From contig JAAEQW010000312.1 in assembly GCA_024231025.1 (NCBI GenBank), positions 3,238 through 67,237 on the forward strand: 64,000 nt of DNA. Reading direction: 5' to 3'. This DNA is from Candidatus Omnitrophota bacterium. GTDB taxonomy: Bacteria > Omnitrophota > Gorgyraeia > Duberdicusellales > 4484-171. The notes under the pieces are model-generated. The model ran no database searches. It saw only the letters and a list, made by a program, of their open reading frames with translations, and was not told where the DNA came from. Position 1 is the first letter of the stretch, and each line of letters starts with the position of its first letter. The translations under genes and the position numbers were made by a program. This document shows positions 7,342 to 56,542 of this stretch, in pieces.

Positions 7342-7409
7342 ACCAAGTCATAAGTGATAAGTCATAAGCAGTAAAGCAAGCTACAACTTACGACTAAACA
7401 AATTACGAT

Positions 7410-16646: not shown

Positions 16647-16734
16647 ATTGTTTCCGTTGTTTAGCAAGTCCTTACGGTTCTAGTAAATTGTTGTGATATT
16701 ATAACAAAATAAACCTATTTGGAAAGAAATTATC

Positions 16735-23880: not shown

Positions 23881-23972
23881 TTTTCGAATTTACCCCCTTA
23901 GAAAAACATCGAGCGAATACCCCTCACGCACTTGGTCTTCAGCAGATATGCGGATATAGATTGCGATTTTCA

Positions 23973-25121: not shown

Positions 25122-25186
25122 GGGTCAGCCGAGAGTATAGAATTTGACCCTCCTACGCACTGTTGGCTTCGAAGGACAGGCTTTAA
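25122..25186 (-). pseudogene. duplicated fragment of the mtaB 5' end, repeat copy C
   Basis: Minus-strand translation IKACPSKPTVRRRVKFYTLG* matches MtaB residues PIKACPSKPEGCRRIKFYTLGC. DNA shares GGGTCAGCCGAGAGTATAGAATTTGA.CCTCCTAC and CTTCGAAGGACAGGCTTTAAT with 16549-16612. Abuts the rsmE stop codon. Confidence 0.8.
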
Positions 25187-27384: not shown

Positions 27385-27460
27385 TGGTGGACCGAAGCGG
27401 AGTCGAACCGCCGACCTCCTCGTTGCGAACGAGGCGTTCTCCCAACTGAACTACCGGCCC
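27385..27460 (-). tRNA. tRNA-Ala (anticodon CGC)
   Basis: Reverse complement GGGCCGGTAGTTCAGTTGGGAGAACGCCTCGTTCGCAACGAGGAGGTCGGCGGTTCGACTCCGCTTCGGTCCACCA has a G3:U70 pair (Ala identity), anticodon loop TTCGCAA, encoded CCA. Confidence 0.9.
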
Positions 27461-27462
27461 AT

Positions 27463-27592
27463 AAAATTTACGAAGTAAATTTTAGAGCATTGGAGCATTC
27501 GATCATTAGAGCATTAGAAAAATGCAACAATGCGGTCAAATGTTCTAATGTTCACATTTAAAATAACCCGTAAAATTTACGAAGTAAATTTT
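27463..27592. repeat. two copies of a 21-bp AT palindrome (AAAATTTACGAAGTAAATTTT) plus GC hairpin GTCCCGAAACTTCGGGAC
   Basis: Copies at 27463-27483 and 27572-27592; AGAGCATT repeated three times between them; GTCCCGAA/TTCGGGAC hairpin at about 27596-27613. Confidence 0.6.
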
Positions 27593-27666
27593 AAAGTCCC
27601 GAAACTTCGGGACGATCTATTGCTCAATTGTTCTATTTTCACTCTACCAAATCATCTAAATAAAAA

Positions 27667-29412: not shown

Positions 29413-29454
29413 ATTACCTCCTCAATAATTATCCGATTCTGTCAAAATTACAAG

Positions 29455-29600
29455 ACACAAGCTACAAACAAATCCCCCGCCTGCCGGCGGGCAGGCAATT
29501 CCAAATGTTCAAAATATCAAACAAAATAAGACATTATTGTTTTGATCATTTGGTTTTTGGTAATTGAAAATTGTTTGTGGTTTGAAATTTGTCATTTGTA
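29455..29600. repeat. intergenic repeat family R2, degenerate copy with GC hairpin CGCCTGCCGGCGGGCAGGC
   Basis: ACAAGACACAAG...CCCGCCTGCCGGCGGGCAGGCAA...GGTAATTGAAAATTGTTTGTGGTTTGAAATTTGT shares the hairpin and flank motifs with 42163-42268 and 44333-44473. Confidence 0.6.
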
Positions 29601-29670
29601 ATTTCATTTTTTTATAAGATCTTGACGCTATAAATTACCAATATATTGCACATCACCTATCAAATTAACA

Positions 29671-32439: not shown

Positions 32440-32566
32440 AATTCCTCCTTATTATATGTAACTTTATAGTTTAAAGACATAAATATTCTATATAAATTAA
32501 GGATGATTGTCAATTAAACTAACAACAATGATTCAGTGATAAGAATTAAGAATTAAAGATTACGTA

Positions 32567-32720
32567 GGGGCACAGCACGCTGTGCCCCCTTTATTGTTTT
32601 CATTATCGTTAATCCAATTTATGGGATTATTGATAATATATTTACGGATTTTAATTGCGGATTTGGTAACGAGGTATTATTTAATGAAATTGTCCACAAG
32701 GGCACAGCACGCTGTGCCCC
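32567..32720. terminator. pair of identical 22-bp GC palindromic hairpins (GGGGCACAGCACGCTGTGCCCC) 112 bp apart
   Basis: Copies at 32567-32588 (followed by CTTTATTGTTTTC on plus) and 32700-32720 (immediately 3' of the 32743..35157 gene on minus). Confidence 0.5.
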
Positions 32721-32742
32721 TACTTACAACTAAACCAACGGT

Positions 32743-42107: not shown

Positions 42108-42162
42108 AACTACCTCCTAAAATTACAATCTAAAGTCGCTTAAGAATCACACAGCAATAATC

Positions 42163-42268
42163 AAGATACAAGACACAATAACCAAACAATGACCAATAAC
42201 CAAATTCAAATAACCAAGCGGTTTGGTAATTGAATATTGAAATTTGTTTGTATCTTGTAACTTGTATC
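42163..42268. repeat. intergenic repeat family R2, copy b
   Basis: CAAGATACAAGACACAATAACCAAACAATGACCAATAACCAAATTCAAATAACCAAGCGGTTTGGTAATTGAATATTGAAATTTGT...TTGTATCTTGTAACTTGTATCTTG is virtually identical to the reverse complement of 44333-44473. Confidence 0.8.
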
Positions 42269-42370
42269 TTGTTTCTTATATCCCTATCTTTTTCGCCACC
42301 TTATTTATACCATTAAATCAACTTATAATCAAGTTGCGTAATCGGTCAAAAACTCTTATTTCATAAGAGA

Positions 42371-43522
42371 TTATAACAAATTAATCGCCTCTTTAAGGCA
42401 CTTTACATCCACCGTAAGCGCAAAGCGAATATACCCTTCACCGTACTTACCAAATCCTAATCCCGGAGTGGCAACAATACCCTTTTTCATGAGCTCTTTC
42501 GCGAAATCTATTGAAGACTTATTACCTTTGGGTAATTTCGCCCAAACATAAAACGTGCTATCGGCGTGTATATCCTTAAATCCTTTTGCCCGTAAACCTT
42601 TTACAAAGACATCTCTTCTGTTTTTAATAGTTTTTCTCAAACGATTAACATAATCGGCCTCATTAGAAAGAGCATAAGCCGCGGCATCTTGAACCGCGCT
42701 GAATATTCCTGAATCAAGGTTAGCCTTTACTTTCGCCAGCCCTTTAATCAGCTCGCTACCTCCACATGCCCATCCAACACGAAAACCAGTCATGCAAAAT
42801 GTTTTAGAATGTGAATGAAACCCAACCGCCACCTCTTTAGCGCCTTTCACCTCAAAAATACTGTGCGGCTTCTTATCAAAATAAACTTCCGAGTAGGCAT
42901 TGTCATAAGCAATAATAATTCCATACTTTGCACAAAATTTAACCACCTTGCGTAAAAAACTTAGTGGCGCAATCGCAGTTGTCGGATTATTAGGATAATT
43001 TAGGTAAATAAGCTTTGCTTTATTTCTTACTTTAAGAGGAATCTTATCTAAATCAGGAAGAAAGTTGTTTTCAGCTAAAAGCGGCACTTCATATGCATTA
43101 GCACCGGCAAAAAGTGCAGCGCTTCGATACCCCGGATATCCGGGCGAAGGAATTAAAACATAATCCCCTGGATTAACAAACCCTAGCGGAAAATGCACCA
43201 ATCCTTCTTTTGAACCAATAAGCGGTAGAATTTCGCTATCGACATCTAAAGAAACATTAAATCTTTTTTTAAACCAACTTTTAATTGTTTTTTTGAATTC
43301 CGGCTTACCCTGATCAAGCGCATACTTCTGATTAGCCTTAATTTTTGCTGAATCATACAGAACCTTATTCACCTGCTTCGGCGCCAATATGTCTGGATCA
43401 CCAATACTTAAGTCAATAAAGTTAACTTTCTTTTTCCTTAATTCACCCTTTTTTCTGTCGATTTCTGCGAATAAATACGGCGGTAAATCTTGCAATCTCT
43501 TCGACCATTGAAACTTTCCCAT
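42371..43522 (-). CDS. dapL: PLP-dependent aminotransferase, probably LL-diaminopimelate aminotransferase (DapL-type)
   Basis: 383 aa class-I aminotransferase (SHSKTFCMTGFRVGW lysine region), N-terminal LPPYLFAEID reminiscent of DapL, adjacent to dapB. Confidence 0.55.
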   Translation of the reverse strand: MGKFQWSKRLQDLPPYLFAEIDRKKGELRKKKVNFIDLSIGDPDILAPKQVNKVLYDSAKIKANQKYALDQGKPEFKKTIKSWFKKRFNVSLDVDSEILPLIGSKEGLVHFPLGFVNPGDYVLIPSPGYPGYRSAALFAGANAYEVPLLAENNFLPDLDKIPLKVRNKAKLIYLNYPNNPTTAIAPLSFLRKVVKFCAKYGIIIAYDNAYSEVYFDKKPHSIFEVKGAKEVAVGFHSHSKTFCMTGFRVGWACGGSELIKGLAKVKANLDSGIFSAVQDAAAYALSNEADYVNRLRKTIKNRRDVFVKGLRAKGFKDIHADSTFYVWAKLPKGNKSSIDFAKELMKKGIVATPGLGFGKYGEGYIRFALTVDVKCLKEAINLL

Positions 43523-43574
43523 AATACTCCTTTCCTAAAACCACGTTACCTTTGGGGTTTGGTAACGGGGTTAA

Positions 43575-44291
43575 TTAATTTGAATCGAATAGAACGTTTT
43601 GCATTGAATATAATCCAGGTTGCTTGTTGATAAGCCATTTTGCCGCTGTAATTGCGCCTTTGGCAAAAATATCGCGTGTTTTTGCTGAGTGAAAAAGTTC
43701 GATTTTATCAACATCACTTTCAAAAGTAACTTTATGATCTCCGATTATCTCTCCTTCTCTAATTGCTGAAATATCAGGGGTTCTTATGCTAAAGCCCTGA
43801 TCGTTTATAACTTGGGCAATCTTTTTTGCCGTTCCCGACGGAGAATCTTTTTTGTGAATATGATGAGCTTCTTCAATCGCAACGCTATATCCAGAAAGCG
43901 CAGCGGCTGCGTCTTTCAATAGTTTAAAAAGTATGTTTACCCCAACGCTCATGTTTGGCGAATAAACAATGGGTATACTTTTTGCCGCCTGCTCAATCAT
44001 TGTGCCTTCATCAGTTTTAAGTCCGGTTGTACCAATAACAACCGGAACTTTGTACTTAACGAAATAATCTAAATGATCTAAAGTTGCCTGAGGTGAAGTA
44101 AACTCAATAAAACATTCGCATTTTTCTACGTCTTTAAGGTCACAAGTAATCGCTATGCCTTGTGACTTTCCTACATCAGGATGGTCAGCGCTTTCCAGAC
44201 CTACAACAACATCGCAAGAAGGGTCCTCATTAGCTAAATGAAGAATTCTCATTCCCATTTTACCGCATACACCGCTTATTCCTAACTTCAT
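43575..44291 (-). CDS. dapB: 4-hydroxy-tetrahydrodipicolinate reductase
   Basis: 238 aa, N-terminal GxxGxxG (GISGVCGKMG), conserved EAHHIHKKDSPSGTA motif. Confidence 0.9.
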   Translation of the reverse strand: MKLGISGVCGKMGMRILHLANEDPSCDVVVGLESADHPDVGKSQGIAITCDLKDVEKCECFIEFTSPQATLDHLDYFVKYKVPVVIGTTGLKTDEGTMIEQAAKSIPIVYSPNMSVGVNILFKLLKDAAAALSGYSVAIEEAHHIHKKDSPSGTAKKIAQVINDQGFSIRTPDISAIREGEIIGDHKVTFESDVDKIELFHSAKTRDIFAKGAITAAKWLINKQPGLYSMQNVLFDSN

Positions 44292-44332
44292 TATTATCCT
44301 CCTGGTACAATATGTTTGTTAAATAATTAAGT

Positions 44333-44473
44333 TACAAGATACAAGTTACAAGATACCCGCCTGCCGGCGGGCAGGCAAACAAATTACAAATTTCAATATT
44401 CAATTACCAAACCGCTTGGTTATTTGAATTTGGTTATTGGTCATTGTTTGGTTATTGTGTCTTGTGTCTTGGT
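44333..44473. repeat. intergenic repeat family R2, copy c (inverted relative to copy b, carries the GC hairpin insertion)
   Basis: Reverse complement matches 42163-42268 nearly base for base, plus inserted CCCGCCTGCCGGCGGGCAGGC hairpin segment. Confidence 0.8.
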
Positions 44474-44490
44474 TATTTTTATATCGCTTC

Positions 44491-46281
44491 TCACTGCATA
44501 TTATTATTTTTCAGTATTGCTACTCCAAATTCATTACTCGTAAATGGAAACGGTCCGATTACTTTTTCGGATGAATAATTTTTCATTATCCACTTAAAAA
44601 GATCCGTTCCATAGTCAAGACCAAAACGAGACGCCCCATGTTCAGATGTAATGCGCTGAACAATAACAACGTAGTCAGCACTAGATTTGATAAAATCTCC
44701 AATAACATCTTTTTCATCAACAATCGAAAAAAGTGCAGGCGTAAACGACACATGTCGCATGGGATTCATGCGCTTGGAAAGATAATTTATTCCTGCACCT
44801 TCTGGAACAACTACCACTGTAGCATCTCTTGGTGTATTTTTCAATAAATATACTATCGCACTTAGCGTGCGAAAATTAAGCATATCTTCCTGTACCGTAA
44901 CAACATTATCGCCATCGCGCATAACCAAATTTCTACTTAAATATAAACTATGCGATACTCTCCACCAGGAAAGCGCACTCATCGCACAGATAAAAATCAG
45001 CACGAACGAAAAAAATCTTCTAGGAACATCAGGGAAATACCGCTTTAAAATAACATCAAAACCCTTAAAGAAAAATATATAATAAGCCGCCAAGGAAATC
45101 GGCACTAAGTAAAATCCATAATGATGTGCGGTAATATGGAAAATAACTCGAATTAACAAAGCTAGTGACACCAAGCACAACGCGAATAACACCATCCACT
45201 TCGGATGGTTTAGGCGAAAAATCCCGATCAGAGAAACAACTGCACCAATAATCAAAAAGATCTGCATTGGTAAAAACTGAAAGCTTCTCACCGCAATAAC
45301 GCCCATTACCTGCTCAATAACAACAAAACCTATTAAAACTAACGGTAAAAGAAAATAGAATGCCTTTCGCCCACAAGAAAAAAAAGGCGTAATCCAGCAA
45401 GTAAATAATGCCAACGCTATAAATACTATATAGAAAATAAACGATTGGGCTATGTTAGCGCAACTATTTTTGAAATCCGTCAAACCCATTATTTCAGCCA
45501 CAAACGAACTATTTTTTGTAGCAAGAATATGATCGATGATCGCCTCTTTAAATCCGCTAAAACTACCGGTAAAAATCATAAATACCGAATAACCCACTAA
45601 AGCAAAAATTATTGGCGCAAACAGAATAAAAACGATTTTCCACTCTTTTCTATTCTTGATAGCATATACCAACCCTGAAATTAAAAAAGCTCCCCAAACC
45701 AATAGCGGCAAAAGAATACGGCAGGAAAAAGCAAAAAACATAAAAATGGCCCACGCAAAAAGATAATTTTTTCTTTGAGTTAATAAGAACTTTAAGAAAA
45801 AATATAGCGCATAAATGGTAAATACGATAAAGGTAGTTGAGGCAAAACTATACGGTAATATAAAATTAAAGATGCCGTGGTAACAATATTGCCCGAAAGC
45901 AAAAACAAAGAGAAAATTAACTACAAGAACCGTTGAGACAACCCTATCCAGAAACAATCGTGATATCCTATAAAGAGCTACCGAAAAAGCCAACGTTAAA
46001 ATAATCCCATAAAAAACAAAAACCGCCAAATGATTGCCAAGTAAACCTACAAATGCCGCCAAAAGATACGGCGGCAGAATACCATATTCATATAAGATGT
46101 CACGGTACAAAACCGAACCATTAAGTATTTTTGTTGCTATTAGTGGATCACGGAAGGTATCAACTAAAATATTACCCCATCGCGAGAAAGAAACCGAAAA
46201 AAGATAAATAAAAGACTGCAAAATTATAATCGGCGGCAATATTCTGGGACTTACTTTAACCTCTTTACTGAAAAAACTCAT
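44491..46281 (-). CDS. polytopic membrane protein, putative GT-C-fold glycosyltransferase (ArnT/PMT/oligosaccharyltransferase-like architecture)
   Basis: 596 aa, about 12 predicted TM helices, soluble ~150 aa C-terminal domain; first gene-side neighbour of the sugar cluster. Confidence 0.4.
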   Translation of the reverse strand: MSFFSKEVKVSPRILPPIIILQSFIYLFSVSFSRWGNILVDTFRDPLIATKILNGSVLYRDILYEYGILPPYLLAAFVGLLGNHLAVFVFYGIILTLAFSVALYRISRLFLDRVVSTVLVVNFLFVFAFGQYCYHGIFNFILPYSFASTTFIVFTIYALYFFLKFLLTQRKNYLFAWAIFMFFAFSCRILLPLLVWGAFLISGLVYAIKNRKEWKIVFILFAPIIFALVGYSVFMIFTGSFSGFKEAIIDHILATKNSSFVAEIMGLTDFKNSCANIAQSFIFYIVFIALALFTCWITPFFSCGRKAFYFLLPLVLIGFVVIEQVMGVIAVRSFQFLPMQIFLIIGAVVSLIGIFRLNHPKWMVLFALCLVSLALLIRVIFHITAHHYGFYLVPISLAAYYIFFFKGFDVILKRYFPDVPRRFFSFVLIFICAMSALSWWRVSHSLYLSRNLVMRDGDNVVTVQEDMLNFRTLSAIVYLLKNTPRDATVVVVPEGAGINYLSKRMNPMRHVSFTPALFSIVDEKDVIGDFIKSSADYVVIVQRITSEHGASRFGLDYGTDLFKWIMKNYSSEKVIGPFPFTSNEFGVAILKNNNMQ

Positions 46282-47288
46282 AAAACATCATTAACGCATT
46301 CGTCCTGATTGTAAAAAATAATTTGGCTGCCTAAATTTTCAAATCGAAACGGCACATACAAAAGAGGTTTCAATTTTTCTTTTATTTTTTCACGCAGTTC
46401 GGGTTTTGAGAAAATCAGCATAAATCCTCCACCTCCGGCACCAAGCAGTTTCCCCCCCAATGCCCCGGCACTCAACGCGGTACTATACGCCTGGTCAACA
46501 TCAGAATTAGTAATTTTTTGCGTTAAGGTGCGTTTTATTTTCCAGTTTTCATCAAGAAGCTTTCCAAATTCATCAAGGCTCGTGGCGTCATCGGCTAAAG
46601 CATTAATAGCGTGTTCGGTCATTTGCATCAGGCGCTTAAGCGAGCTGGTGTTATTAGGAATATTCTCGATCTGTTCTTTCGCCAAAACAGATGCCCGGCG
46701 CGGAAAGCCAACAAAAAACAACATTAAATGCTTTTGCAGTTCAGCCAATTTATTAGCATTCATAATCAGCGGCTCCACTTCAAAACCTTGTTGTTTATTA
46801 AACGTTACCTTATTAAAACCGCCAAAAGAAGCAATTGTTTGATCTTGAGAGCCAACACTTTCGCCAATCAAATTCTGCTCAACGTGTATCGCGTCTTTTG
46901 CAAGTTGACGGCGAGTAATCATTTTGCCCCGCAAAGCATAAAGCGCTTGCAAAAGGCCAACTGAAAATGACGAACTCGAACCGAGCCCGCTCATTGCCGG
47001 TAAATCGGCATTATGCTGCACCTCTACTCCGCGATCAATTTTTAGAAATTTTAAACATTCTCGCACAGAAGGATGTTTTATTTGATCAATCGTTTCAGTT
47101 TCTTCGCGCACGCTATAACGAATTCTAAATTTATAATCAAAAAAAGGAGGTAAATAGCGGCAAGTGATATATCCGTACTTATCAATTGAAGTAGTTAGCA
47201 CAACACCTCCGTGCTCATTGTACCAATCGGGATAATCGGTACCACCGCCAAAAAATGACACTCTAAAAGGGGTTCTAACAATAATCAT
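46278..47288 (-). CDS. GHMP-family sugar kinase (D-glycero-D-manno-heptose 7-phosphate kinase HddA-like)
   Basis: 336 aa, N-terminus IVRTPFRVSFFGGGTDYPDW and GHMP ATP-binding loop PAMSGLGSSSSF. Confidence 0.65.
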   Translation of the reverse strand: MIIVRTPFRVSFFGGGTDYPDWYNEHGGVVLTTSIDKYGYITCRYLPPFFDYKFRIRYSVREETETIDQIKHPSVRECLKFLKIDRGVEVQHNADLPAMSGLGSSSSFSVGLLQALYALRGKMITRRQLAKDAIHVEQNLIGESVGSQDQTIASFGGFNKVTFNKQQGFEVEPLIMNANKLAELQKHLMLFFVGFPRRASVLAKEQIENIPNNTSSLKRLMQMTEHAINALADDATSLDEFGKLLDENWKIKRTLTQKITNSDVDQAYSTALSAGALGGKLLGAGGGGFMLIFSKPELREKIKEKLKPLLYVPFRFENLGSQIIFYNQDECVNDVL

Positions 47289-47529
47289 ACATCTTCTCCT
47301 GATATAGATTTATTAAAAATAACTAATAGCTAAAAACGAAAAACTTAAAACCATATCTCAAAACTTAAAATTTCTCCGAAAATTCTTGAAATCCATCAAG
47401 ACCTTAACCGTTTTTAACTTTACGCTATGGTTTTACGGTTTACGCTCTCAGTTTCACGTTTTATTACTTAATTGCAAGAAACATCCGGCAAAAAAAGTAA
47501 AAACACTTTTTTACTTCTTATCTCTGTCC

Positions 47530-48927
47530 TCAACGTTTATTACTAATTTTGCGATACTTTTTAGGTAACTTAAAAATCTTATTCATTATATAGTAATTAT
47601 AGAGAATCTGTTTAATTTTTTTGTAAAATTTATTCGGCTTACTATTTTTTATTATAAATAAGCCAAGGTTGTAAAGCGGCCCCTTAAGTTTAGAGACCAA
47701 GCAACCCAAAAGAAAAATATTATAGCGAATGTCCTTTTCTTTCTCACTAAAACAACTTAAAGTTGAACGCCTAACGCATCCGGTCATATCATCGTTATAG
47801 TTTGATTTAATGCAGCCGTGTTTAATTGAATAATCATAAAGAGCAGTACCTTTCATCGGCACTGTAGTTGAAAAGTTTGAATAAGTAACTTTGGCCTGCT
47901 TGCTCATCTTTATTGTGTTTAAGTCATCTTCTAAGGTTGACTCCGGCGCAGCAAGCATATAATTTACCCAGGTATTTATTCCATAACTCTGTATCTTTCG
48001 TAAGGTCTCTACAATATTAATCTTACGCATTCGCCTTCCTAATACTTTCTCGCGTATGCGCTCTGAAACACTGTCAACCGAAAGATGCACCGAATAACAC
48101 CCAGCCTGCTTTAATAAGTTAAGAAGTTCATCGTCTACCGTATCCAAACGCAAAAAGCAATTAAATGGCAGGTTGATACGTTTTGCGTATTTTTGGCTGA
48201 ATTCCACAAACCATGAATCAGCCTTCATCGTAAAAAGATCGTCGCCAAACTTAATAAAAGTTGTTCGATAATTATTTTTTACTGACTCGATCTCCCGAAT
48301 AAGATTCTCAACCGGAAACCTGCGCACAATCGCCCCTTTACCTTTATAAAGATCATGGTAGTAATTATTACAGCAGTAAGAACACGTAAAAGGACAGCCC
48401 CTAGTTGCATAAAAAGTTTTCTTTGGTGTGTCTTTTAAAAAAGAATTAGATAAAACCAACTCTCGATCTGGACTAGGTAAAGTTGCCAAATCATCAATCA
48501 ATGGACGCACAGAGTTAGAAGCATTTTTTGTAATTAAGTTGGCAATATCATCAAATGGTTGGTTATTAATTACTCTTTGCAAGAAATCGCTAAACGCGCC
48601 TTCTCCTTCACCAACGCAATAAGCATCAACTCCCGATTCAGAAAAAGTCCAAGGGGAAAACGTCGGATGAGGACCACCCATAATCGATATAAAACTATTG
48701 CTTTCAATCGCTTTTTTATGAGCAGCAACAATATCCGAAAACCCCTGTATATTCACCGAATAAGCAACCACATCAGGTTTAATACGGGCAGCCTCTTTTG
48801 AAAGATCAGACGAATCTAGTGAGCAGAAAAATGTCTCACAATTAACGTTCTTGGCAACCGCCGATAAATAAGAAATCGCGATATGATCGGCAAAATCAAG
48901 TTGGGCAATACAAAATAATACTTTCAT
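47530..48927 (-). CDS. cobalamin-binding (class B) radical SAM enzyme, likely methyltransferase
   Basis: 465 aa, N-terminal B12-binding-like domain, radical SAM cluster motif ATRGCPFTCSYCCN. Confidence 0.75.
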   Translation of the reverse strand: MKVLFCIAQLDFADHIAISYLSAVAKNVNCETFFCSLDSSDLSKEAARIKPDVVAYSVNIQGFSDIVAAHKKAIESNSFISIMGGPHPTFSPWTFSESGVDAYCVGEGEGAFSDFLQRVINNQPFDDIANLITKNASNSVRPLIDDLATLPSPDRELVLSNSFLKDTPKKTFYATRGCPFTCSYCCNNYYHDLYKGKGAIVRRFPVENLIREIESVKNNYRTTFIKFGDDLFTMKADSWFVEFSQKYAKRINLPFNCFLRLDTVDDELLNLLKQAGCYSVHLSVDSVSERIREKVLGRRMRKINIVETLRKIQSYGINTWVNYMLAAPESTLEDDLNTIKMSKQAKVTYSNFSTTVPMKGTALYDYSIKHGCIKSNYNDDMTGCVRRSTLSCFSEKEKDIRYNIFLLGCLVSKLKGPLYNLGLFIIKNSKPNKFYKKIKQILYNYYIMNKIFKLPKKYRKISNKR

Positions 48928-48929
48928 TA

Positions 48930-49646
48930 TTAAAACTTAAGAATTTTGTCTAAAAAAGTAGAGGGCAAATGAAAAAACTCTTCAATTACGATTGAGAGTT
49001 CATTAAAGCCATTTTTGATGATACTTCGGCAACTCTTTCCGCCAATACGCGCGGGCTCATCTCCGCCAATTTCTGCTATCTTTAAACCATACGTAATTGC
49101 ACGAATATATGTTCGCGTTTCAACCGGACGACTTATAATCTTAATGTCAAGACGACTGTGTATATCTTTGCGAAAAGCACGATATATTCCCAAAAGATCG
49201 GTGCATTGCGCCTTAAACAGTGCCCGCACCAGCGCGCTAAACATCCAATTGCCAAAGCCGCTAATCAGAGTGTCGTCTTCACTTTTTGCCCCATCTTTAT
49301 ACCTTGAACAAACCACCATATCGTAGCCCTCTTTCATTTTAGCAATTAGCTGAGGGATTTTTTCCGGCAGGCAATTTCCATCGGGAGTGAAAAGTATAGT
49401 CACATCGCTAGTCACCGCCGCTAATCCTTCTTTATACCCGGCCATAACCCCTTTGCCCTTTTGAATTGTTACCTGATAACCTAAACTTTGAGCATACTCA
49501 ATACTGCCATCGGTTGAAGCACCATCAATAAAAATTATTTCATCCAACCACTCTTTTTTTATCCGCGGCAAAATCACCCTTAAGGCTTCTATTTCATTAA
49601 ACGATAAGATCACCAATGAAAATGTCATAACCTGCTCCGGTACCAT
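48930..49646 (-). CDS. GT2-family glycosyltransferase (dolichol/polyprenol-phosphate sugar synthase-like)
   Basis: 238 aa, GT-A N-terminus LVILSFNEIEALRVILPRI...IDGASTDGS, DxD-type region. Confidence 0.7.
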   Translation of the reverse strand: MVPEQVMTFSLVILSFNEIEALRVILPRIKKEWLDEIIFIDGASTDGSIEYAQSLGYQVTIQKGKGVMAGYKEGLAAVTSDVTILFTPDGNCLPEKIPQLIAKMKEGYDMVVCSRYKDGAKSEDDTLISGFGNWMFSALVRALFKAQCTDLLGIYRAFRKDIHSRLDIKIISRPVETRTYIRAITYGLKIAEIGGDEPARIGGKSCRSIIKNGFNELSIVIEEFFHLPSTFLDKILKF

Positions 49647-50581
49647 TCAATTGTCTTGGCAATTCCATCTTTAAGCGAAGTTTTTGCTTTAAAACCTAGC
49701 TTCTCTGCTTTTGATGTATCGATCAATCTTTTTGAAATCATCGTCGGCTTATCTTTATTAAAAACAATATTTGCTTTGAAACCTTCGACTTCTACAATAA
49801 TATCTAACGCCTGCCTTATTGAAACCGCCGTGGCAGTTGCAATATTTATCGGATCAAAACAGTCAATCTTCTCCATCGCGATAAGCGCACCATCAATGAA
49901 ATCATCAATAAAAATAAGGTCTTTTATGTCGCTGCCATCGCCCCACACCTCAACCGGATCGTGACGTTCAATAACTTTTCGCATCAGTGCCGGCAAGACA
50001 TGTGAGGTTTCCCACGCAAAATCATCAAACGGACCATAAATATTCGCCGGGCGTAAAACAACAACTTTCATTGGATTTTTAATTTTCTCAGCGTACATTC
50101 TGCACAAAACTTCACTAAACTGTTTCATCCACGCAACGCAATAATATTTTTCAAACACATCGCCGAAAACCATCTCTTCTTCTTTAACCGGATGCTCCAG
50201 CGCCGGATAAACAGTATTGCTGCTTATCCACAAAAATTTCTTAACACCCGCCTGATAAGCGCCGTCAAGCAATAGTGTGTTCATAATAATATTTGGAGTA
50301 ACATGCACCAGCGGAGTTTTTGCCATTACCCCCGCACCGGAAGTATTTGCCGCACACATAAAAACATAATCAACACCAGCGGTAACTCGTGCGCAATCAT
50401 CGCTTTTTGTTAGATCACAATTAACAACCTCGATCGCGGCATCGTGTATTTGCAAATCTCGATTGTGCCGAGTCACACGAACACGAGCACCACAATCAAT
50501 TAAACGCTTGGTTAAATTTGTACCAACAAACCCCGCTCCACCGGCAACTAATACTTTTTTATCTTTAAACATCTCCACCAT
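49625..50581 (-). CDS. NAD(P)-dependent epimerase/dehydratase family protein (sugar-nucleotide 4-reductase/epimerase)
   Basis: 318 aa, Rossmann KVLVAGGAGFVGTNL, SDR YxxxK region. Confidence 0.7.
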   Translation of the reverse strand: MVEMFKDKKVLVAGGAGFVGTNLTKRLIDCGARVRVTRHNRDLQIHDAAIEVVNCDLTKSDDCARVTAGVDYVFMCAANTSGAGVMAKTPLVHVTPNIIMNTLLLDGAYQAGVKKFLWISSNTVYPALEHPVKEEEMVFGDVFEKYYCVAWMKQFSEVLCRMYAEKIKNPMKVVVLRPANIYGPFDDFAWETSHVLPALMRKVIERHDPVEVWGDGSDIKDLIFIDDFIDGALIAMEKIDCFDPINIATATAVSIRQALDIIVEVEGFKANIVFNKDKPTMISKRLIDTSKAEKLGFKAKTSLKDGIAKTIEWYRSRL

Positions 50582-51122
50582 CTCTTTTTGAAAGTATTGG
50601 ATTCTCTAGCGGCCAGGTAATATTAAATCTTTTATCGTTCCACGCATAGGTAAATTGACTCTCTCGATTGTAATATGTAGTTTGCTTATAGTGAAAAATC
50701 ACTTTCTCTGTTAAGGCCAAATGAGCGTTGCCATATTTTGGCGGCACTAACACTTGCTGTCGATTGCTCCCAGAAAGCACAAACGACTGCCACTTACCGA
50801 AACTCTCTGATGCGCTATCGCAATTAACTACAACAAAATAAAATTCACCATAAAGGCATGATACAAGCTTATACGTTTTATCGTCGCCGTGAATCCCGCG
50901 TAATACTTTTCTTTTCGAAACTGAAATATCATCCTGAATAAACTCAACATCAATACCGTGCTCTTTATAAAGTCCTTTATTGAAAATTTCAACATAATGA
51001 CCGCGATGATCAACAAAAGCATCCGGCTCGATTAATAGCACTCCATCTAACTCAGTTTTTGATATTTTAATCATCTTTAAAATAATTTTTCTTAAACTTA
51101 TATTCGTCTTGATTTTTAACAA
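50565..51122 (-). CDS. RmlC-like cupin sugar-nucleotide 3,5-epimerase
   Basis: 185 aa dTDP-4-dehydrorhamnose 3,5-epimerase-fold signature (LLIEPDAFVDHRGHYVEIFN...RGIHGDD...). Confidence 0.75.
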   Translation of the reverse strand: MLKIKTNISLRKIILKMIKISKTELDGVLLIEPDAFVDHRGHYVEIFNKGLYKEHGIDVEFIQDDISVSKRKVLRGIHGDDKTYKLVSCLYGEFYFVVVNCDSASESFGKWQSFVLSGSNRQQVLVPPKYGNAHLALTEKVIFHYKQTTYYNRESQFTYAWNDKRFNITWPLENPILSKRDGGDV

Positions 51123-52050
51123 ACCACTCCCAGGTTTGTTTCAATCCATCCAATAGCGACGTAGAAGGTTGATAGCCGATTAGTTTTTGAGCAAGTGAAA
51201 TATCCATAACTCTTTTTGGAAAACCGCCTTTTTTTGATACATCAAACTCATAGTTAAAATCTAAAAAGCTTGCCAGCGCTTGAACCAACTCCTTTATTGA
51301 ATACCCTTTTCCGCTGCCTAAATTAACAAATCCCGACTTTGTGCCATGATATAGTGCCAAAATAACGCCTTCTGCAACATCTCGACTATAGGCAAAATCA
51401 CGAATCGCACTGCCATCACCCCAAACCATTACCGGATCGCACTTATTATATATCTTACTCATTAATGATGGTATAACCATTGCATTGTCTGGATCAAAAT
51501 TGTCACCGGGCCCATAAACGTTGCACGGTCTAACAATTGAGAAATTATTCAAGCCATATTGAATTTGATAAGCTTTTACCTGCAATTCAGCCATACGCTT
51601 GGCCCAACCGGGAAACATGTCCATTGGAGGGCCGGTGGCTTCTTCTTCTTTAAAGACTTCGGCACTGGCATAGGCCCCAATTGAACTTGTATAAACTGTT
51701 TTTTTAACATTGCTAATTCGACAAGCTTCCAAAACGTTTGCATTCAGCATTAAAAGCGGCACAAAAAAGCTTGCGGGCTTATTTCTGGTTACATCGATTG
51801 AACCTTTGATTCCCGCTAAGTGAAAAACAAAATCAAAGTCACGAATCACTTTTTTGCAAAATGAAAAATCGGTTAAATCGCCAATAATATGTTCGACGCA
51901 ATTATTTACCTTTAACTCATCTAAAGAAATAATTACAACGCATGCGCCGCTACCAACAAGGATATCAACAACTTGCCGACCGATTAGCCCGGTACCGCCG
52001 GTAACTAAAACATTTTTGCCTGAAAAACTACTTAAAATTTCTTCTTTCAT
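51067..52050 (-). CDS. NAD(P)-dependent epimerase/dehydratase family protein
   Basis: 327 aa, Rossmann NVLVTGGTGLIG, SDR catalytic YxxxK (YASAEVFKEE region). Confidence 0.7.
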   Translation of the reverse strand: MKEEILSSFSGKNVLVTGGTGLIGRQVVDILVGSGACVVIISLDELKVNNCVEHIIGDLTDFSFCKKVIRDFDFVFHLAGIKGSIDVTRNKPASFFVPLLMLNANVLEACRISNVKKTVYTSSIGAYASAEVFKEEEATGPPMDMFPGWAKRMAELQVKAYQIQYGLNNFSIVRPCNVYGPGDNFDPDNAMVIPSLMSKIYNKCDPVMVWGDGSAIRDFAYSRDVAEGVILALYHGTKSGFVNLGSGKGYSIKELVQALASFLDFNYEFDVSKKGGFPKRVMDISLAQKLIGYQPSTSLLDGLKQTWEWFVKNQDEYKFKKNYFKDD

Positions 52051-52052
52051 TA

Positions 52053-52814
52053 TTACTCAACAATAAAATAAGATACTCGTGAAGCATATAAGCAACGCTT
52101 CAGAGAAATATTGTTCAATCCGAAAACTTCCATTAATGCTTTCGTTTCACCGGGAGAATCATGGTCATTAAGCTCATCAAAACCAATAACACTACCTTTA
52201 ACCAAGCGCGGCTTTATTGCCTCAAGGCAAGCCTTAGTTGGCTCATATAAATCAAAATCAAAATAGGCCAAAGCAACGATTGTTTCAGGATATTCTTTTA
52301 GATAATCAACAATTCCGCCAATCGCATCACCAACAACAAAATCATACTTCTTAATGTGACTTAAGGGATTGTCACCCTCTTGGCAATCCATAATTTGAGT
52401 TAAATACTCAAGATAATTATCGCTAACTCCAACGTTACCGGCTTTAATCATCTCTGAATTACCATCTTCTTTGGCAACGCCAGGAAACCCTTTAAATGTG
52501 TCGAAGCCAATAATTTTTTTATGTCGGTTATATGGCTCATAAATGGCCCGCATTGCTGCAAACAAAGACATATTTTGCCCCCAACGAGTACCGAAATCCA
52601 TAACTACACCTTGCACGTCCACAGCTTGACGATACAAAAAGTCCATAAATAAAATGCGTGACAAGACCTTTGAATTAAGAAATAACCCAAGATTTGGCAT
52701 TATTGCATCATCCGGTAATGGGCTTTTTTTGAAAAGTTCTACAAATTTTTGCCTTACTGTATTTTCGTGTTCACTCGCGTAATTCATTCCGCCATAAGTA
52801 ACCTGCTGTGCCAT
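52053..52814 (-). CDS. TylF/MycF-family SAM-dependent sugar O-methyltransferase
   Basis: 253 aa, motifs GVVMDFGTRWGQ and GFDTFKGFP characteristic of macrocin-O-methyltransferase-like enzymes. Confidence 0.65.
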   Translation of the reverse strand: MAQQVTYGGMNYASEHENTVRQKFVELFKKSPLPDDAIMPNLGLFLNSKVLSRILFMDFLYRQAVDVQGVVMDFGTRWGQNMSLFAAMRAIYEPYNRHKKIIGFDTFKGFPGVAKEDGNSEMIKAGNVGVSDNYLEYLTQIMDCQEGDNPLSHIKKYDFVVGDAIGGIVDYLKEYPETIVALAYFDFDLYEPTKACLEAIKPRLVKGSVIGFDELNDHDSPGETKALMEVFGLNNISLKRCLYASRVSYFIVE

Positions 52815-52824
52815 TGTTCCTCCC

Positions 52825-53748
52825 TTATTTAAAAAAATTATTCGCTTCTTCTTTTATGCTTTCAAAGCCAAGACCGAAATTATCTCTAATAATTTCACGC
52901 CCGCCATACTTATAACAACTTTCATACCCCGCTCTTGCGTTTAAGCCCAATCTTTTTACGGAAATTTTTATATCACAATCGTTAAACAACTCACACACCG
53001 CACTGCCCATCCCTCCGGCAAGAAAATGCTCCTCAAGAGTAATTATTTTTTCAACTCCGTTAATTGCCTCAATAAACGCCTCTCGATTAATTGGTATCTG
53101 AAAAAGATCAATAACGCCATAGTCGCTAGCGGCAATTTCGCAAGCACTATGCACCATTGCCCCAGTTGCAACAATCATTTTGCGCCCTTCTTTAATTTTA
53201 TTTAATCCACTTGAAAAATCAGCTCCCGCTGAATAAACATCATCATGGAAATCCTTATCTAGACGTATATAATTTGTTACGCTGGAATTAGCAGCAATAC
53301 TAACCAAAGAAGCGGCCATGATGTTGTCGGTTGTATTAAGTATATTAATCCCTGGAAAACTGCGCATTATCGCAACATCTTCGATCAAATGATGAGTTGG
53401 GCCATCGCTATGATAACCTAATCCAACCCCCATACCAACAATCGTTATTGGAATTTCATTAATACAGCTATTAACCCTAATCTGCTCAAGACAGCGCAAA
53501 GTAATAAACGGTGCTATCGCATAACAAAAAACTTTCTTACCTTCTTTAGCAAGCCCTGATGCAATAAGAATTGCGTTTTGCTCGGCAATACCAACATTAA
53601 CAAACTGCATAGGTAAATCACGGCGAAATTTATCAAGTGCCGGAGCGCTCATATCGGCCGAAACAATGATGACGTCTCGATCGACTCTTGCTAATTCATA
53701 TACTCGATCAAAAAATACATCGCGTTGTGTTTTATTGGCCATCTTCAT
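52825..53748 (-). CDS. transketolase, C-terminal (pyrimidine-binding) subunit of a split transketolase
   Basis: 307 aa, Pyr plus C-terminal domains (GIAEQNAILIASGLA, ITLEEHFLAGGMGSAV). Confidence 0.8.
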   Translation of the reverse strand: MKMANKTQRDVFFDRVYELARVDRDVIIVSADMSAPALDKFRRDLPMQFVNVGIAEQNAILIASGLAKEGKKVFCYAIAPFITLRCLEQIRVNSCINEIPITIVGMGVGLGYHSDGPTHHLIEDVAIMRSFPGINILNTTDNIMAASLVSIAANSSVTNYIRLDKDFHDDVYSAGADFSSGLNKIKEGRKMIVATGAMVHSACEIAASDYGVIDLFQIPINREAFIEAINGVEKIITLEEHFLAGGMGSAVCELFNDCDIKISVKRLGLNARAGYESCYKYGGREIIRDNFGLGFESIKEEANNFFK

Positions 53749-54640
53749 ACCTCCTCTTTAAGTCGGCAATACATTGGGTAGCGACTTTATTGCCAGGAGC
53801 ACAGCCATGCCATAGCGGATCGTAACACAAACTTTTAACCCCCTTACCCTTAACTGTATCGGCAATAATTACCGTCGGTTTAGCAGAACTATGCGAGCGA
53901 AGCGGTTCAATCGCTGCTAAAATTTCTTCAAAACAATGGCCGTTAATGCGAATGACGCCGAATCCAAATGATTTCCACTTATCTTCCATCGGCTCAAGCG
54001 CAACCAAATCTTCCGTAAAATCAGTAACACACAAGAAGTTTCGATCAACTATCGTAATAAGATTATTAAGATTATTGTGACTGGCAAACATTGCGGTTTC
54101 CCAAATTGAACCCTCATAACACTCACCATCACCTAAAATAGCAAACACATTGTGCAACTCTCTATTCATTTTGGCACTTAAAGCCATGCCCGCAGCTACA
54201 CCATAGCCCTGACCCAACGAACCAACAGTAAGTTCCACCCCAGGCACACTTTTTTGCAAATGTACCGCGAGCTTACCGTCAAGCTTGGTAAAGCCCTTTA
54301 AGTCCGCCTTATCAAAAAACCCAAGATCAGCTAAAATCGTATAAAGCGCAGGACTCGCTTGCCCCTTGCTTAATACTAGCCGATCTCGATTAAAAGAGTC
54401 CGGGCATTTTGCATCAAAGCGCATAAGATCCGCATAATAAAGCGCAACTAAAATGTCAACGCACGAAAGGCAAGACGTAACATGCCCCTTACCGGCGTTA
54501 ATGCACATCTCAAGCATTGCTTTACGGATTTCAAAAGACTTAGCGTAAAGACGACTGTTTTTCTTTTCTTTTCGGTTAAAAAGGCCCTTTAAATTTATTT
54601 TCATAAGTGTAAAAATCCTCTCCCGATAAATCGGTTTCAT
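53732..54640 (-). CDS. transketolase, N-terminal (TPP-binding) subunit of a split transketolase
   Basis: 302 aa (start may be the internal Met near 54604), GKGHVTSCLS and GDGECYEGSIWE TPP-binding motifs. Confidence 0.8.
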   Translation of the reverse strand: MKPIYRERIFTLMKINLKGLFNRKEKKNSRLYAKSFEIRKAMLEMCINAGKGHVTSCLSCVDILVALYYADLMRFDAKCPDSFNRDRLVLSKGQASPALYTILADLGFFDKADLKGFTKLDGKLAVHLQKSVPGVELTVGSLGQGYGVAAGMALSAKMNRELHNVFAILGDGECYEGSIWETAMFASHNNLNNLITIVDRNFLCVTDFTEDLVALEPMEDKWKSFGFGVIRINGHCFEEILAAIEPLRSHSSAKPTVIIADTVKGKGVKSLCYDPLWHGCAPGNKVATQCIADLKRRYEDGQ

Positions 54641-55610
54641 CTATTGCCAATTTTTCTTCGATAGCGCGAATAATATTAACCGCGTTAGGATAAAAACGAT
54701 CCTCCAACGGACGAGCGCACGGACAAGGCGAAAAAGCAAAACCAATTCGCTTAACCGGACTTTTCAAATTATCAAAAGACTTTTCACTAATTACCGCGGC
54801 CAGCTCAGCACCAAAACCGCAATGAACCCAATCGTTATCGGCAACAATGCAATGACCCGTTTTATTTACTGAATCGATGAGTGTTTGTTCGTCTAACGGA
54901 GTTAAGGTAATTGGATCAACTACTTCAACTTCAATGCCTCGTTTTTGTAAAATTTCTGCCGCTTTTATGGCTTCAACATTCATCCATGAAGTCGCGATAA
55001 CGCTAATGTCTTTGCCACAACGCAGGACCTTTGCTTTCCCTAAAGACGATTGATGATCATTAATTGGACCGCATATATCATAAAGCCAGCGATGTTCAAA
55101 AATAATAACCGGACTATCATCACGAATCGCCGCAATCAATGTATGTTTTGCATCGTTTGGCGTTGAGGGCATCGCTACCTTTAGCCCCGGAATATGGGCA
55201 AAACACGAATGCATAGATTTGCTATGCTGAAAAGCCTGCCCCCAGCCTCTGCCAATAATTGCTCGTATAACCATCGGTACTTTTAAGGTACCATTAGTCG
55301 CGTATCGATAGCTTGAAACCATGTTTGCCAACTGATTCATTGCAAGAAGCAAAAAATCAACCCGCATATGAGTGTGAATTGGACGCAATCCACACAAAGC
55401 CGCGCCCAATCCAAAGCCAGTCATCGCATCCTCCGATAAAGGCGTGCTAAAGCAGCGCTTTGGCCCAAACTTATCAAGTATTCCTTTTGTGCTACCGAAA
55501 ATGTTTTTATGGTCGGCAACATCAATACCATAAGTAAAAACCGAAGGATCGCGTTCCATCTCGCTAAACAATGCCTCATTTATTGCTTCGCGATAAGTTA
55601 ACTCTCTCAC
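54576..55610 (-). CDS. 2-oxoacid dehydrogenase E1 component beta-subunit homolog (TPP enzyme, transketolase-like Pyr/C domains)
   Basis: 344 aa, E1-beta-like N-terminus MRELTYREAINEALFSEMERDP...GIDVA. Confidence 0.8.
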   Translation of the reverse strand: MRELTYREAINEALFSEMERDPSVFTYGIDVADHKNIFGSTKGILDKFGPKRCFSTPLSEDAMTGFGLGAALCGLRPIHTHMRVDFLLLAMNQLANMVSSYRYATNGTLKVPMVIRAIIGRGWGQAFQHSKSMHSCFAHIPGLKVAMPSTPNDAKHTLIAAIRDDSPVIIFEHRWLYDICGPINDHQSSLGKAKVLRCGKDISVIATSWMNVEAIKAAEILQKRGIEVEVVDPITLTPLDEQTLIDSVNKTGHCIVADNDWVHCGFGAELAAVISEKSFDNLKSPVKRIGFAFSPCPCARPLEDRFYPNAVNIIRAIEEKLAIDETDLSGEDFYTYENKFKGPF

Positions 55611-56539
55611 TATACCACTTCCTTTAGCAAAATGTCATCGCTGGGAAATGGACTTTGCTTTGACTTTTTAATTGATTCCTCCACCTGAATATCGATTTCT
55701 TTTTCGATCAGTTCTGGCGCAGTTATTTTTTTTCTTTGCAACAATATTGGATCTCGCTTCTGCCAACTTTCGAAATCTTCGCGCTTTCGATATCCGGCAT
55801 CGAAATCTTCATTTACACCAACGTGCTCAAGATAGCGATAGTATTTTAAATGAAGAAAACACGGCAACTGCTTTTCATTAGAAAGCTTAATTGCCTCTAG
55901 TGTTAATTTATAAATAACTTCAGCATCGGTAGAATCACTTGATAAAACAACGCAATTAAATTGCGAAACAATATTGGTAATTTTATCATAACCGCAGCGA
56001 CTAGCACTCGGAGTATGGACAGCAAAACCGTTGTCTTCGCAAACAAAAAGAATTGGTAATTTCATAAGGCAGGCAACATTTAGGCTCTCCCAGAATACCC
56101 CTTCATCAATTGCACCATCACCAAAAAACACTGCTGTTTTTTTATTACTATTAGCATACTTATTAGCAAATTCAGCACCGACCGCAACCGGAATAATACT
56201 TGCAACAATTGCCGAAGTCCCCATAACCCCTTTAGACGGCGCACAAAGATGCATTGAACCGCCCTTGCCTTGCAACAAAGCTGATCCTCTGCCATATATT
56301 TCAGCAAAAAAATCATCGCTATTGCCGGTTTTAGCCAAATAAAGAGCGTGCGAACGATAAGTGCCGAACACCTGAGCATTATCGCCTAAAGCAAGGCACA
56401 CACCCGCTGAGATTGCCTCTGCCCCCATCGACATATGCATTGGCGTTTTCATAGCATCATCACCGTAGTCATCGATGATCCTCTGTTCACAACGCCGAAT
56501 TAAATAAAGTTTTTTATAAAGAAGGGTGTTTACGTCCAT
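55610..56539 (-). CDS. 2-oxoacid dehydrogenase E1 component alpha-subunit homolog (TPP-binding)
   Basis: 309 aa, TPP motif GDGAIDEGVFWESLN; no E2/E3 genes nearby. Confidence 0.8.
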   Translation of the reverse strand: MDVNTLLYKKLYLIRRCEQRIIDDYGDDAMKTPMHMSMGAEAISAGVCLALGDNAQVFGTYRSHALYLAKTGNSDDFFAEIYGRGSALLQGKGGSMHLCAPSKGVMGTSAIVASIIPVAVGAEFANKYANSNKKTAVFFGDGAIDEGVFWESLNVACLMKLPILFVCEDNGFAVHTPSASRCGYDKITNIVSQFNCVVLSSDSTDAEVIYKLTLEAIKLSNEKQLPCFLHLKYYRYLEHVGVNEDFDAGYRKREDFESWQKRDPILLQRKKITAPELIEKEIDIQVEESIKKSKQSPFPSDDILLKEVV

Positions 56540-56542
56540 AAA

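Follow-up and report, generated by a model that had tools for sequence, protein, structure and literature searches.

Classical bacterial intervening sequences (IVSs) are defined by their position in helix 9, 25, or 45 of 23S rRNA and by excision by RNase III. The Coxiella IVS is described as selfish: its 28-bp terminal inverted repeats form a stem, the loop holds an S23p (PF05635) open reading frame (ORF), and the number of tandem GACAGAT heptamers depends on the strain; RNase III excises it, and its origin and mobility are described as unresolved (PMC4990558). In bacteria of the candidate phyla radiation (CPR), PF05635 ORFs occur in rRNA insertions, including insertions in 16S rRNA, and short ORF-less insertions occupy classical IVS sites (PMC11270868). 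PF05635 proteins belong structurally to the Avd family (PMC10053308). Surveys of small IVSs had, in general, not turned up copies outside rRNA (PMC2672173). Here we describe three heptamer-armed hairpins, copies A, B, and C, in a 64-kb stretch of contig JAAEQW010000312.1 (positions 3,238 to 67,237; hereafter the window) from a Candidatus Omnitrophota metagenome-assembled genome (MAG). They are probably ORF-less members or relatives, similar to miniature inverted-repeat transposable elements (MITEs), of a widespread extra-ribosomal family of IVS-type hairpin cassettes, the gene-bearing form of which carries a PF05635 ORF.

A second group of comparable repeats, the short tandemly repeated repetitive (STRR) sequences, is not known to have been described outside (heterocystous) cyanobacteria, where these sequences are arrays without an assigned function. 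Mazel et al. in 1990 reportedly listed heptamers such as CCCCAAT/CCCCAGT and TTGGTCA, and CAACAGT is said to be another canonical unit. Among the long units of simple repeats, those of 7 nt predominate in many bacteria (reviewed in PMC4679880). In the literature available outside subscription, we found no published link between dispersed intergenic heptamer hairpins or STRRs and PF05635 genes.

Results

Three long hairpins built of heptamers

Copies A and B bracket the dapL-dapB pair, and copy C lies in the gap between exbB and an ABC substrate-binding gene (Table 1). As the original prediction for this locus had claimed, A and B are near-identical inverted copies: a repeat finder detected arms at 42156-42247 and 44386-44477 (92 nt, 98% complementary) and a second pair at 42250-42278 and 44328-44356 (29 nt, 93%). 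In the alignment, B contains a clean 20-nt block that A lacks, namely the additional GC palindrome that had also been predicted, and one extra heptamer. The third, degenerate copy that was said to contain the same hairpin was recovered with nhmmer and shares ~70-76% identity with A and B. The proposal of a recent duplication or gene conversion is supported by the 98% identity of A and B, compared to ~73% for C.

All three elements are AT-rich, 132-163 nt in length, and devoid of ORFs, and PF05635 has no match anywhere in the window. Each is a long imperfect palindrome whose stem, by both repeat finding and RNA folding, extends over nearly the whole element. Compared with shuffled controls, the RNA folds of both strands of all three copies gave z scores of -3.1 to -5.6. 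On either strand, an A/C-rich 5′ arm of degenerate tandem (N4-CAA)n heptamers is followed by a G/T-rich 3′ arm of (TTG-N4)n heptamers, and the outer arms carry complementary ACAAG and CTTGT. Tandem Repeats Finder placed period-7 arrays at 42248-42282, 44329-44356, and 29581-29604. The motif ACAAGATACAAG, with up to two mismatches, was found 19 times in the window compared to 6.3 expected, and 13 of the 19 occurrences fell inside A, B, or C.

Copies A, B, and C share with IVSs an inverted-repeat stem-loop and stem heptamers of variable number and, like STRRs, are intergenic tandem heptanucleotide arrays. They lack the rRNA location of IVSs, as all three lie between protein-coding genes; in the 64-kb window, Rfam detected no rRNA and just three tRNAs at or above the gathering threshold. 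No Rfam family described A, B, or C at either gathering or permissive thresholds, the best match being lactis-plasmid RNA on B (30.8 bits against a threshold of 70). Copy A had no blastn match among PLSDB plasmids.

Table 1. Positions of the hairpin copies, their parts, and the bracketed genes in the window
Feature	Position	Strand	Description	Evidence
Copy A	42153..42284	.	ORF-less heptamer-armed hairpin	Repeat finder, RNA fold, nhmmer
Copy A, 5′ arm	~42156-42216		AC-rich, CAA every 7 nt	
Copy A, loop	~42217-42221			
Copy A, 3′ arm	~42222-42278		GT-rich, TTG every 7 nt	
Copy B	44324..44480	.	Inverted relative to A	Repeat finder, alignment, RNA fold, nhmmer
Extra heptamer in B	44386..44392		ACAAATT; one-unit copy-number change relative to A	Alignment
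GC palindrome in B	44357..44376	.	CCGCCTGCCGGCGGGCAGGC; 7-bp stem GCCTGCC/GGCAGGC, loop GGCG	
Copy C	29445..29607	.	Diverged family member in the orientation of B	nhmmer (score 35.6, E = 2.5e-9)
GC palindrome in C	29477..29496	.	Identical to that in B	Exact match
dapL	42371..43522	-	LL-diaminopimelate aminotransferase; bracketed by A and B	
dapB	43575..44291	-	Dihydrodipicolinate reductase; bracketed by A and B	

The hairpins belong to a dispersed family

We scanned one genome per species for the exact 18-mer ACAAGAYACAAGYTACAA and obtained at least 118 loci, compared to ~70 expected by chance. Iterated nhmmer searches yielded 65 full hairpins in many phyla, in loci of 33-69% GC. Since these 65 have a complementary arm and match the full-element profile, most seed matches are not due to chance. 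The hosts include Omnitrophota, many Patescibacteria, Ratteibacteria, Acidobacteriota, Gammaproteobacteria, Chloroflexia, and others; several loci have 57-69% GC, and there the AT-rich hairpin is conspicuous. Copy A and an element in L083, which comes from another Omnitrophota MAG, are identical at a fraction of 0.90 (L numbers label comparison loci), and 56-63-nt blocks of A-type interior recur at 87-93% identity in L102 and L017. Median identity was 0.77 within genomes and 0.71 between genomes, and reached 0.94 for a pair of elements in L083. Like B and A, the near-identical copies of the L083 pair differ in the number of units.

In an alignment of 26 elements, CAA recurs down the 5′ arm and TTG up the 3′ arm, each every 7 nt over the whole length. 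The outer units read ACAAGNT, while inner units include AATAACC and AATGACC. In place of alignment covariation, we used an arm-swap duplex test. After normalization, 5′ arms paired better with their native 3′ arms than with foreign ones (residual -5.85 kcal/mol, Mann-Whitney p = 2.4e-5), and the native partner ranked first in 7 of 45 cases. Among 52 elements that could be classified, 40 lie stop-to-start between co-directional genes, eight between divergent starts, and four between convergent stops. The gap to each neighboring gene is usually 30 nt or less; the elements almost fill the intergenic space.

A phage vector was considered and set aside, as the 18-mer was found in just eight viral contigs, mostly as half-elements from termite-gut contigs. 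A distinct arrangement occurs in L121 and L125 (IMG/VR, sample 3300006226) and in L071, an Oscillospiraceae MAG from the same termite-gut study. These GC-rich contigs contain many closely spaced half-elements (CTTGTAACTTGTATCTTGTAAC after AGTTACTAG units) that alternate with GC-rich repeats, a layout unlike that of the hairpins elsewhere.

Some members enclose a four-helix-bundle gene

Some seed matches that looked like solo arms have a partner arm 350-410 nt away. In L009, L046, L065, and L072, the ORF between the distant arms matches PF05635/TIGR02436 (E = 6e-14 to 2e-43) and, weakly, the Avd protein of diversity-generating retroelements (DGRs). The enclosed protein is ~115-130 amino acids long. 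A profile of these ORFs retrieved four additional cassettes, each with the gene inside inverted tandem repeats of ~7 nt. The arms consist of ACAAG units in L106; read ATACAAGAGGAAAGTACAAGATACAAG...CTTGTATCTTTACTCTTGTAT in L060, which follows rpsI in a gammaproteobacterium of 62% GC; consist of GAAAATT units in L240, with the 20-nt GC palindrome of B and C inside the arm; and are purine-rich and pyrimidine-rich in L212. The L106 protein has more than 7,500 homologues, which are ~70% identical across Omnitrophota, Patescibacteria, and WS5.

We also retrieved PF05635 genes independently of the arms, and all five (L253, L261, L271, L272, and L275) lie within CAA/TTG heptamer arms. The arms of the Omnitrophota cassette L271 match those of A at 51 of 55 and 57 of 62 positions (92-93% identity), and the 5′ arm of L275 closely resembles that of B. 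Rfam found no rRNA in 12 cassette loci. Cassette architecture is that of ORF-containing 23S rRNA IVSs, but the cassettes lie between protein-coding genes. The gene-bearing and ORF-less forms may be related by loss of the ORF from a cassette or by capture of an ORF by a hairpin.

IVSs with an S23p ORF, as in Coxiella burnetii and Leptospira, share with this family a long inverted-repeat stem, strain-variable stem heptamers, an optional four-helix-bundle ORF in the loop, short ORF-less forms, a sporadic distribution, and suspected horizontal transfer. Classical IVSs are defined by a ribosomal location and by RNase III excision; A, B, C, and the related cassettes examined all lie between protein-coding genes.

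The same arrangement occurs in cultured cyanobacteria. A tblastn search of PLSDB with the four-helix-bundle protein identified 18 plasmids, all cyanobacterial, and in eight or nine of the ten inspected the gene lies within inverted tandem heptamers. Plasmids of Nostoc punctiforme and N. flagelliforme carry (AATTCGC)4...(GCGAATT)4 around the gene, those of Dolichospermum and Nostoc C052 carry (AATTCGT)4, pNPUN01 carries GTCGGAG/GTCGGAA units, and in Planktothrix the units are CCCCAAT, the classical STRR1 unit, plus AATCGTA. For 15 four-helix-bundle genes (the ten plasmid genes and the five retrieved independently of the arms), the median flank duplex energy was -55.4 kcal/mol, compared to -32.1 kcal/mol for 40 neighboring control genes (p = 7.6e-5).

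The family shares with STRRs its intergenic tandem heptamers, often in inverted arrays that form hairpins, and in the Planktothrix and Nostoc plasmids STRR-type heptamers flank four-helix-bundle genes as in Omnitrophota cassettes. The interior units of A and B, GGTCATT and GGTTATT, resemble the STRR2 unit TTGGTCA. The copies in the window differ from STRRs in their host, which belongs to Omnitrophota rather than to cyanobacteria, and in their outer unit, ACAAGNT, which is not a canonical STRR unit.

Several cassettes on cyanobacterial plasmids are repeatedly located in defense loci (CRISPR adaptation, DISARM/BREX) and mobile-element loci. Those of L280 and L284 lie between cas2 and cas1, that of L282 before cas1, and that of L281 between DISARM drmD and BREX pglX, while the L287 cassette adjoins a TnsA/Mu-type transposase and XisH/XisI.

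Orthologous sites are occupied sporadically

An NCBI Candidatus Omnitrophota MAG encodes a protein with 100% identity to the DapL of the window; the next relatives are ~73% identical. All genes in the part of the window that contains A and B are on the minus strand. The gap that contains copy A runs from the dapL stop (42371) to the start of a Peptidase_S74-domain gene (42107), and that of B from the stop of a gene for a 596-amino-acid protein (44491) to the dapB start (44291). With virtually every ORF annotated by Pfam, the gene order is argF-argG-argH-lysA-dapF-dapA, ~13 kb of sugar and polysaccharide genes, the 596-amino-acid gene, B, dapB, dapL, A, the Peptidase_S74 gene, a 160-amino-acid ORF, and folK-panC-aspDH-uvrA-TPR. 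Both the order and the orientation of dapB-dapL-...-folK-panC-aspDH-uvrA are kept in Omnitrophota relatives. Thus, although the inverted pair is still a potential substrate for the inversion of dapL-dapB that had been predicted, no such inversion has become fixed.

The orthologous dapB/dapL junctions of four relatives (L129-L132) are 8-52 nt long and free of hairpins, while L127/L128 have different ones: a hairpin with unit ACAAATT upstream of dapB and a further G/T-heptamer hairpin between dapB and dapL. The elements are therefore present sporadically at orthologous sites, and A and B mark the borders of a conserved dapB-dapL core against variable neighbors. Compared with L127, where the order is dapA-hairpin-dapB, the window has ~13 kb of sugar-nucleotide and polysaccharide genes (44491-57532) between dapA and dapB, and a variable Peptidase_S74 gene (a phage tail-fiber chaperone domain) separates dapL from folK. 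Copies A and B lie exactly at the junctions that vary with respect to L127.

These comparisons bear on an alternative explanation, in which the elements are regulatory hairpins (intercistronic terminators, attenuators, or mRNA stabilizers) that evolved in place under host selection, and A and B are alike through gene conversion. The elements do lie between co-directional genes and near stop and start codons, heptamer arrays are able to grow by slippage, and on the coding strand the GC palindromes of B and C precede a T-rich arm, with a terminator-like result in C. We nevertheless regard this explanation as unlikely. Folding is not biased by strand with respect to the flanking genes, the GC hairpin is wholly missing from A, and the orthologous junctions of L129-L132 have no hairpin. 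Moreover, the interior is 92-93% identical to cassette arms at an unrelated locus in another MAG (L271), and the same arms enclose a gene elsewhere.

Two narrower candidates were rejected. As to an intrinsic terminator or terminator pair, copy A lacks a GC stem, a lenient scan passes the nested palindrome of C but not B, and there is no orientation bias. Given homologous hairpins at more than 60 loci in many phyla and the sporadic presence at orthologous sites, the family is not a terminator pair specific to this locus, an alternative that the original prediction had raised. A promoter was considered because TTGTAT and TTGTAA could serve as -35 boxes and elements abut start codons at some loci. 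Since promoter-like sites were not in excess (9 compared to 9.3 expected) and most elements lie within co-directional gene strings, this idea was also discarded.

Comparison with other dispersed repeats

Repetitive extragenic palindromes (REPs) are GC-rich palindromes of 20-40 nt with a GTAG or CGTC tag (PMC3733652). Together with REPINs (hairpins formed by REP doublets) and their REP-associated tyrosine transposases (RAYTs; PMC3116915, PMC3733652), they resemble our elements as multi-copy extragenic palindromic hairpins that lack target-site duplications, often share transcripts with neighboring genes, and count as non-autonomous mobile DNA. A palindromic doublet moved as single-stranded DNA by a RAYT or IS200-like Y1 transposase would fit an intergenic multi-copy hairpin, and HUH/Y1 systems predict that no target site is duplicated. 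A gene for a Y1_Tnp (IS200/RAYT-type) protein lies ~0.9 kb downstream of the Omnitrophota four-helix-bundle cassette L275 (L275:2436-3023), a single case that is possibly a coincidence, and in GC-rich metagenome contigs the nested GC palindrome adjoins GTAG-like tags. We find this origin quite unlikely for the copies in the window, which are AT-rich, 130-160 nt long, and built of heptamers, and which have no GTAG or CGTC tag at the element ends or beside the GC palindrome of B or C. No RAYT or Y1 transposase gene is present among the ORFs of the 64-kb window, and the recurrent partner of the family is a PF05635 four-helix-bundle gene rather than a RAYT.

The Correia/NEMIS, ERIC, and Nezha MITEs (PMC3733652) are likewise non-coding inverted repeats of 70-300 nt that lie beside genes, are co-transcribed with them, and form strong stems that are possible targets of RNase III or RNase E. 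In those MITEs, the terminal inverted repeats are 15-30 bp long, the target site is duplicated, and there is a cognate DDE transposase; we detected none of these three features here. If the elements were classical MITEs, that is, deletion derivatives of an insertion sequence moved by a DDE transposase through cut-and-paste at terminal inverted repeats, one would expect short, non-coding copies with inverted termini, near-identity within a genome (A and B; the L083 pair at 0.94), and sporadic occupancy of orthologous sites, as is seen. Yet the flanks of A (AATAAT|...|TTTCTT) and B (AATAACC|...|TAACTT) have no direct repeat in common, and the target-site duplications for which the original prediction had proposed to check the copy ends are missing from both. 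The palindrome of tandem heptamers spans the whole element and not just its ends. Furthermore, among ~290 loci, we found no transposase-bearing relative, and the sole recurring enclosed ORF encodes the four-helix-bundle protein, which is not known to act as a transposase. A DDE-driven origin is thus very unlikely. The description "MITE/REP-like" in the original prediction is apt in that the elements are dispersed, non-coding, non-autonomous, hairpin-forming, and, to judge from A and B, recently copied. It fails for REPs proper (no tag, no RAYT in the window) and for MITEs of the DDE type (no target-site duplication, no transposase).

TAACTGA heptamers of Beggiatoaceae, cyanobacteria, and Bacteroidetes (PMC4679880) resemble the family in their intergenic location just upstream of starts and in their occurrence in distant phyla. 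Those heptamers are repeated directly and always point the same way with respect to the gene downstream, with no inverted hairpin arrays and no link to PF05635. Independent growth of STRR-type arrays by polymerase slippage and template switching, without common ancestry, would agree with the prevalence of heptamers among long simple repeats in many bacteria (PMC4679880), with the variation in unit number (B compared to A; the L083 pair), and with the different units at other loci (ACAAATT, GAAAATT, and AATTCGC), but is scarcely credible given a non-repetitive interior, such as CAATGACCAATAACCAAATTCAAATAACCAA, common to the window, L083, L102, L017, L271, and L275, and a cross-phylum tie to one protein family that slippage alone would not be expected to create.

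The nested GC palindrome is probably a separate module

Between A and B, the 20-nt palindrome of B behaves as a clean indel, and its borders show no duplication except possibly of a single C. It is found in two places in the window, B and C, where none is expected by chance. On the minus (coding) strand, the palindrome of C is followed by GGGATTTGTT and is terminator-like in a lenient scan, which did not flag that of B. The exact 20-mer was absent from all 126 loci that we first compared; at least 120 metagenome contigs carry it, in unrelated settings. About half of the listed contexts are AT-rich, typically ...(T)CC-palindrome-AA..., and include the heptamer hairpin L165, the four-helix-bundle cassette arm of L240, and a termite-gut repeat. 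Of 37 distinct AT-rich contexts with full flanks, only a minority are nested in larger hairpins. The Omnitrophota element L021 carries two other GC mini-hairpins at the equivalent point. Because the palindrome is absent from the 126 loci and nested in only a minority of cases, it does not belong to the family core and is probably a mini-module in its own right.

Elhai et al. in 2008 reportedly described small dispersed repeats (SDRs, 21-27 nt) in Nostoc punctiforme. By this description, SDRs resemble only the nested palindrome, both being tiny dispersed hairpin units that form clean insertions in heptamer arrays or MITE-like hairpins; sequence and hosts differ.

In L137, L141, L148, L149, and ~25 other JGI24700J35501 termite-gut contigs, the palindrome sits within a conserved GC-rich repeat, AAAACCGTGGGGCGCTGCCCC-palindrome-ACACCCCGCAAGGAGCGCGCCCCTTGACCCGC, which is often located at contig ends, as for a high-copy repeat that breaks assemblies. 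Another GC palindrome, GGGGCACAGCACGCTGTGCCCC, occurs twice in the window (32561-32587 and 32700-32726), 112 nt apart, in the gap between TPR and MCP genes. It forms a strong stem, and the pair may be a tandem terminator or represent another family of GC mini-palindromes.

Other features of the window

A weaker long hairpin (z ~-2.2) occupies 47318-47467, between GHMP-kinase and radical-SAM genes. Its A-rich arm precedes a T-rich one, it contains period-7/21 repeats (AACTAAA; TTTACGCTATAGTTTCACGG), and it may be a fourth, unrelated heptamer hairpin. Fragments at 23783-23883 and 25126-25187 copy the 5′ end of a MiaB/RimO-like radical-SAM gene (15360-16667; MSKESEQNSNKPIKACPSKPEGCRRIKFYTLGC) with 61-90% DNA similarity. 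They flank a toxin-antitoxin-like HEPN-nucleotidyltransferase pair (23973-24972), end in stop codons, and look like a target duplication from insertion of a cassette. Upstream of the MiaB/RimO-like gene, a 413-nt gap contains a GC-rich, structured-looking stretch (16720-16900) that has no Rfam match at the gathering threshold and may be an undescribed RNA or leader. Short repeat arrays adjoin two tRNA genes: 3.4 copies of AAGTCAT (7345-7368) beside tRNA-Trp and, at 27458-27596 beside tRNA-Ala, 4.6 copies of TTAGAGCA together with a 30-nt repeat whose copies share 93% identity and are separated by 109 nt.

Discussion

We conclude that A, B, and C are probably ORF-less representatives or relatives of extra-ribosomal IVS-type cassettes. 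A transcript that contains such an element together with its flanking cistrons would form an imperfect RNA stem of 45-60 bp. Cleavage of this stem by RNase III, as in rRNA IVSs, could uncouple the cistrons. A and B may derive from a recent intragenomic copying event, either transposition-like or by gene conversion, which might require a four-helix-bundle protein acting in trans. The 20-nt GC palindrome would be a second, independent mini-module, gained in the lineage of B and C or lost from A.

Several considerations weigh against this interpretation. The arms are of low complexity, and part of the cross-phylum identity is due to the heptamer consensus. The RNAalifold consensus contains just eight pairs, as the heptamer arrays align out of register. 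Folding was not significantly biased toward the sense or antisense strand (13 compared to 24, p = 0.11). This result does not speak for an RNA function tied to one strand, and element orientation is apparently free. As the elements lie inside co-directional gene strings, we infer co-transcription, and RNase III processing is suggested by analogy with IVSs. Mobility, too, is something we infer, since we found neither a pair of empty and filled sites nor a target-site duplication. ORF-bearing forms are a minority of the family, and most of the family data come from MAGs. Finally, in searches with Pfam and the PF05635 profile, none of the ORFs of the 64-kb window matched a transposase, a reverse transcriptase, RNase III, or PF05635, and a trans-acting factor in the source genome is therefore only supposed.

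A broader proposal is possible, if doubtful: that PF05635 (Avd-like) cassettes and ORF-less hairpins form one pan-bacterial class of mobile elements. In such a class, the pentameric protein would recognize the heptamer stems and might act, together with a reverse transcriptase, on RNA released by RNase III, as Avd does in DGRs. The 23S rRNA IVSs, STRR hairpins, and hairpins of Omnitrophota and CPR bacteria would then be the same thing in different targets. The sampling behind the link between IVSs, four-helix-bundle genes, STRRs, and hairpins comprises roughly 25 cassettes and 65 hairpins and is consistent but modest.

Were this class real, it would explain a common origin for rRNA IVSs and STRRs. 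The source of 23S rRNA IVSs and the nature of the cyanobacterial STRR hairpins have been puzzles for more than 30 years, and genes annotated as PF05635 "four helix bundle protein" are among the commonest unexplained small genes in bacterial genomes. Our observations tie IVSs, STRRs, and PF05635 genes to one design, in which inverted heptamer arrays may or may not enclose a four-helix-bundle ORF. Omnitrophota, CPR bacteria, and other phyla commonly have it outside rRNA, where most examples are hairpins without a gene, set between the genes of a presumed transcription unit. Whether the protein binds the heptamer stem, whether RNase III cuts these stems in mRNAs, and whether the cassettes move thereby become testable questions. 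In practice, the hairpins break assemblies, and in streamlined genomes they may serve as sites of operon processing and recombination.

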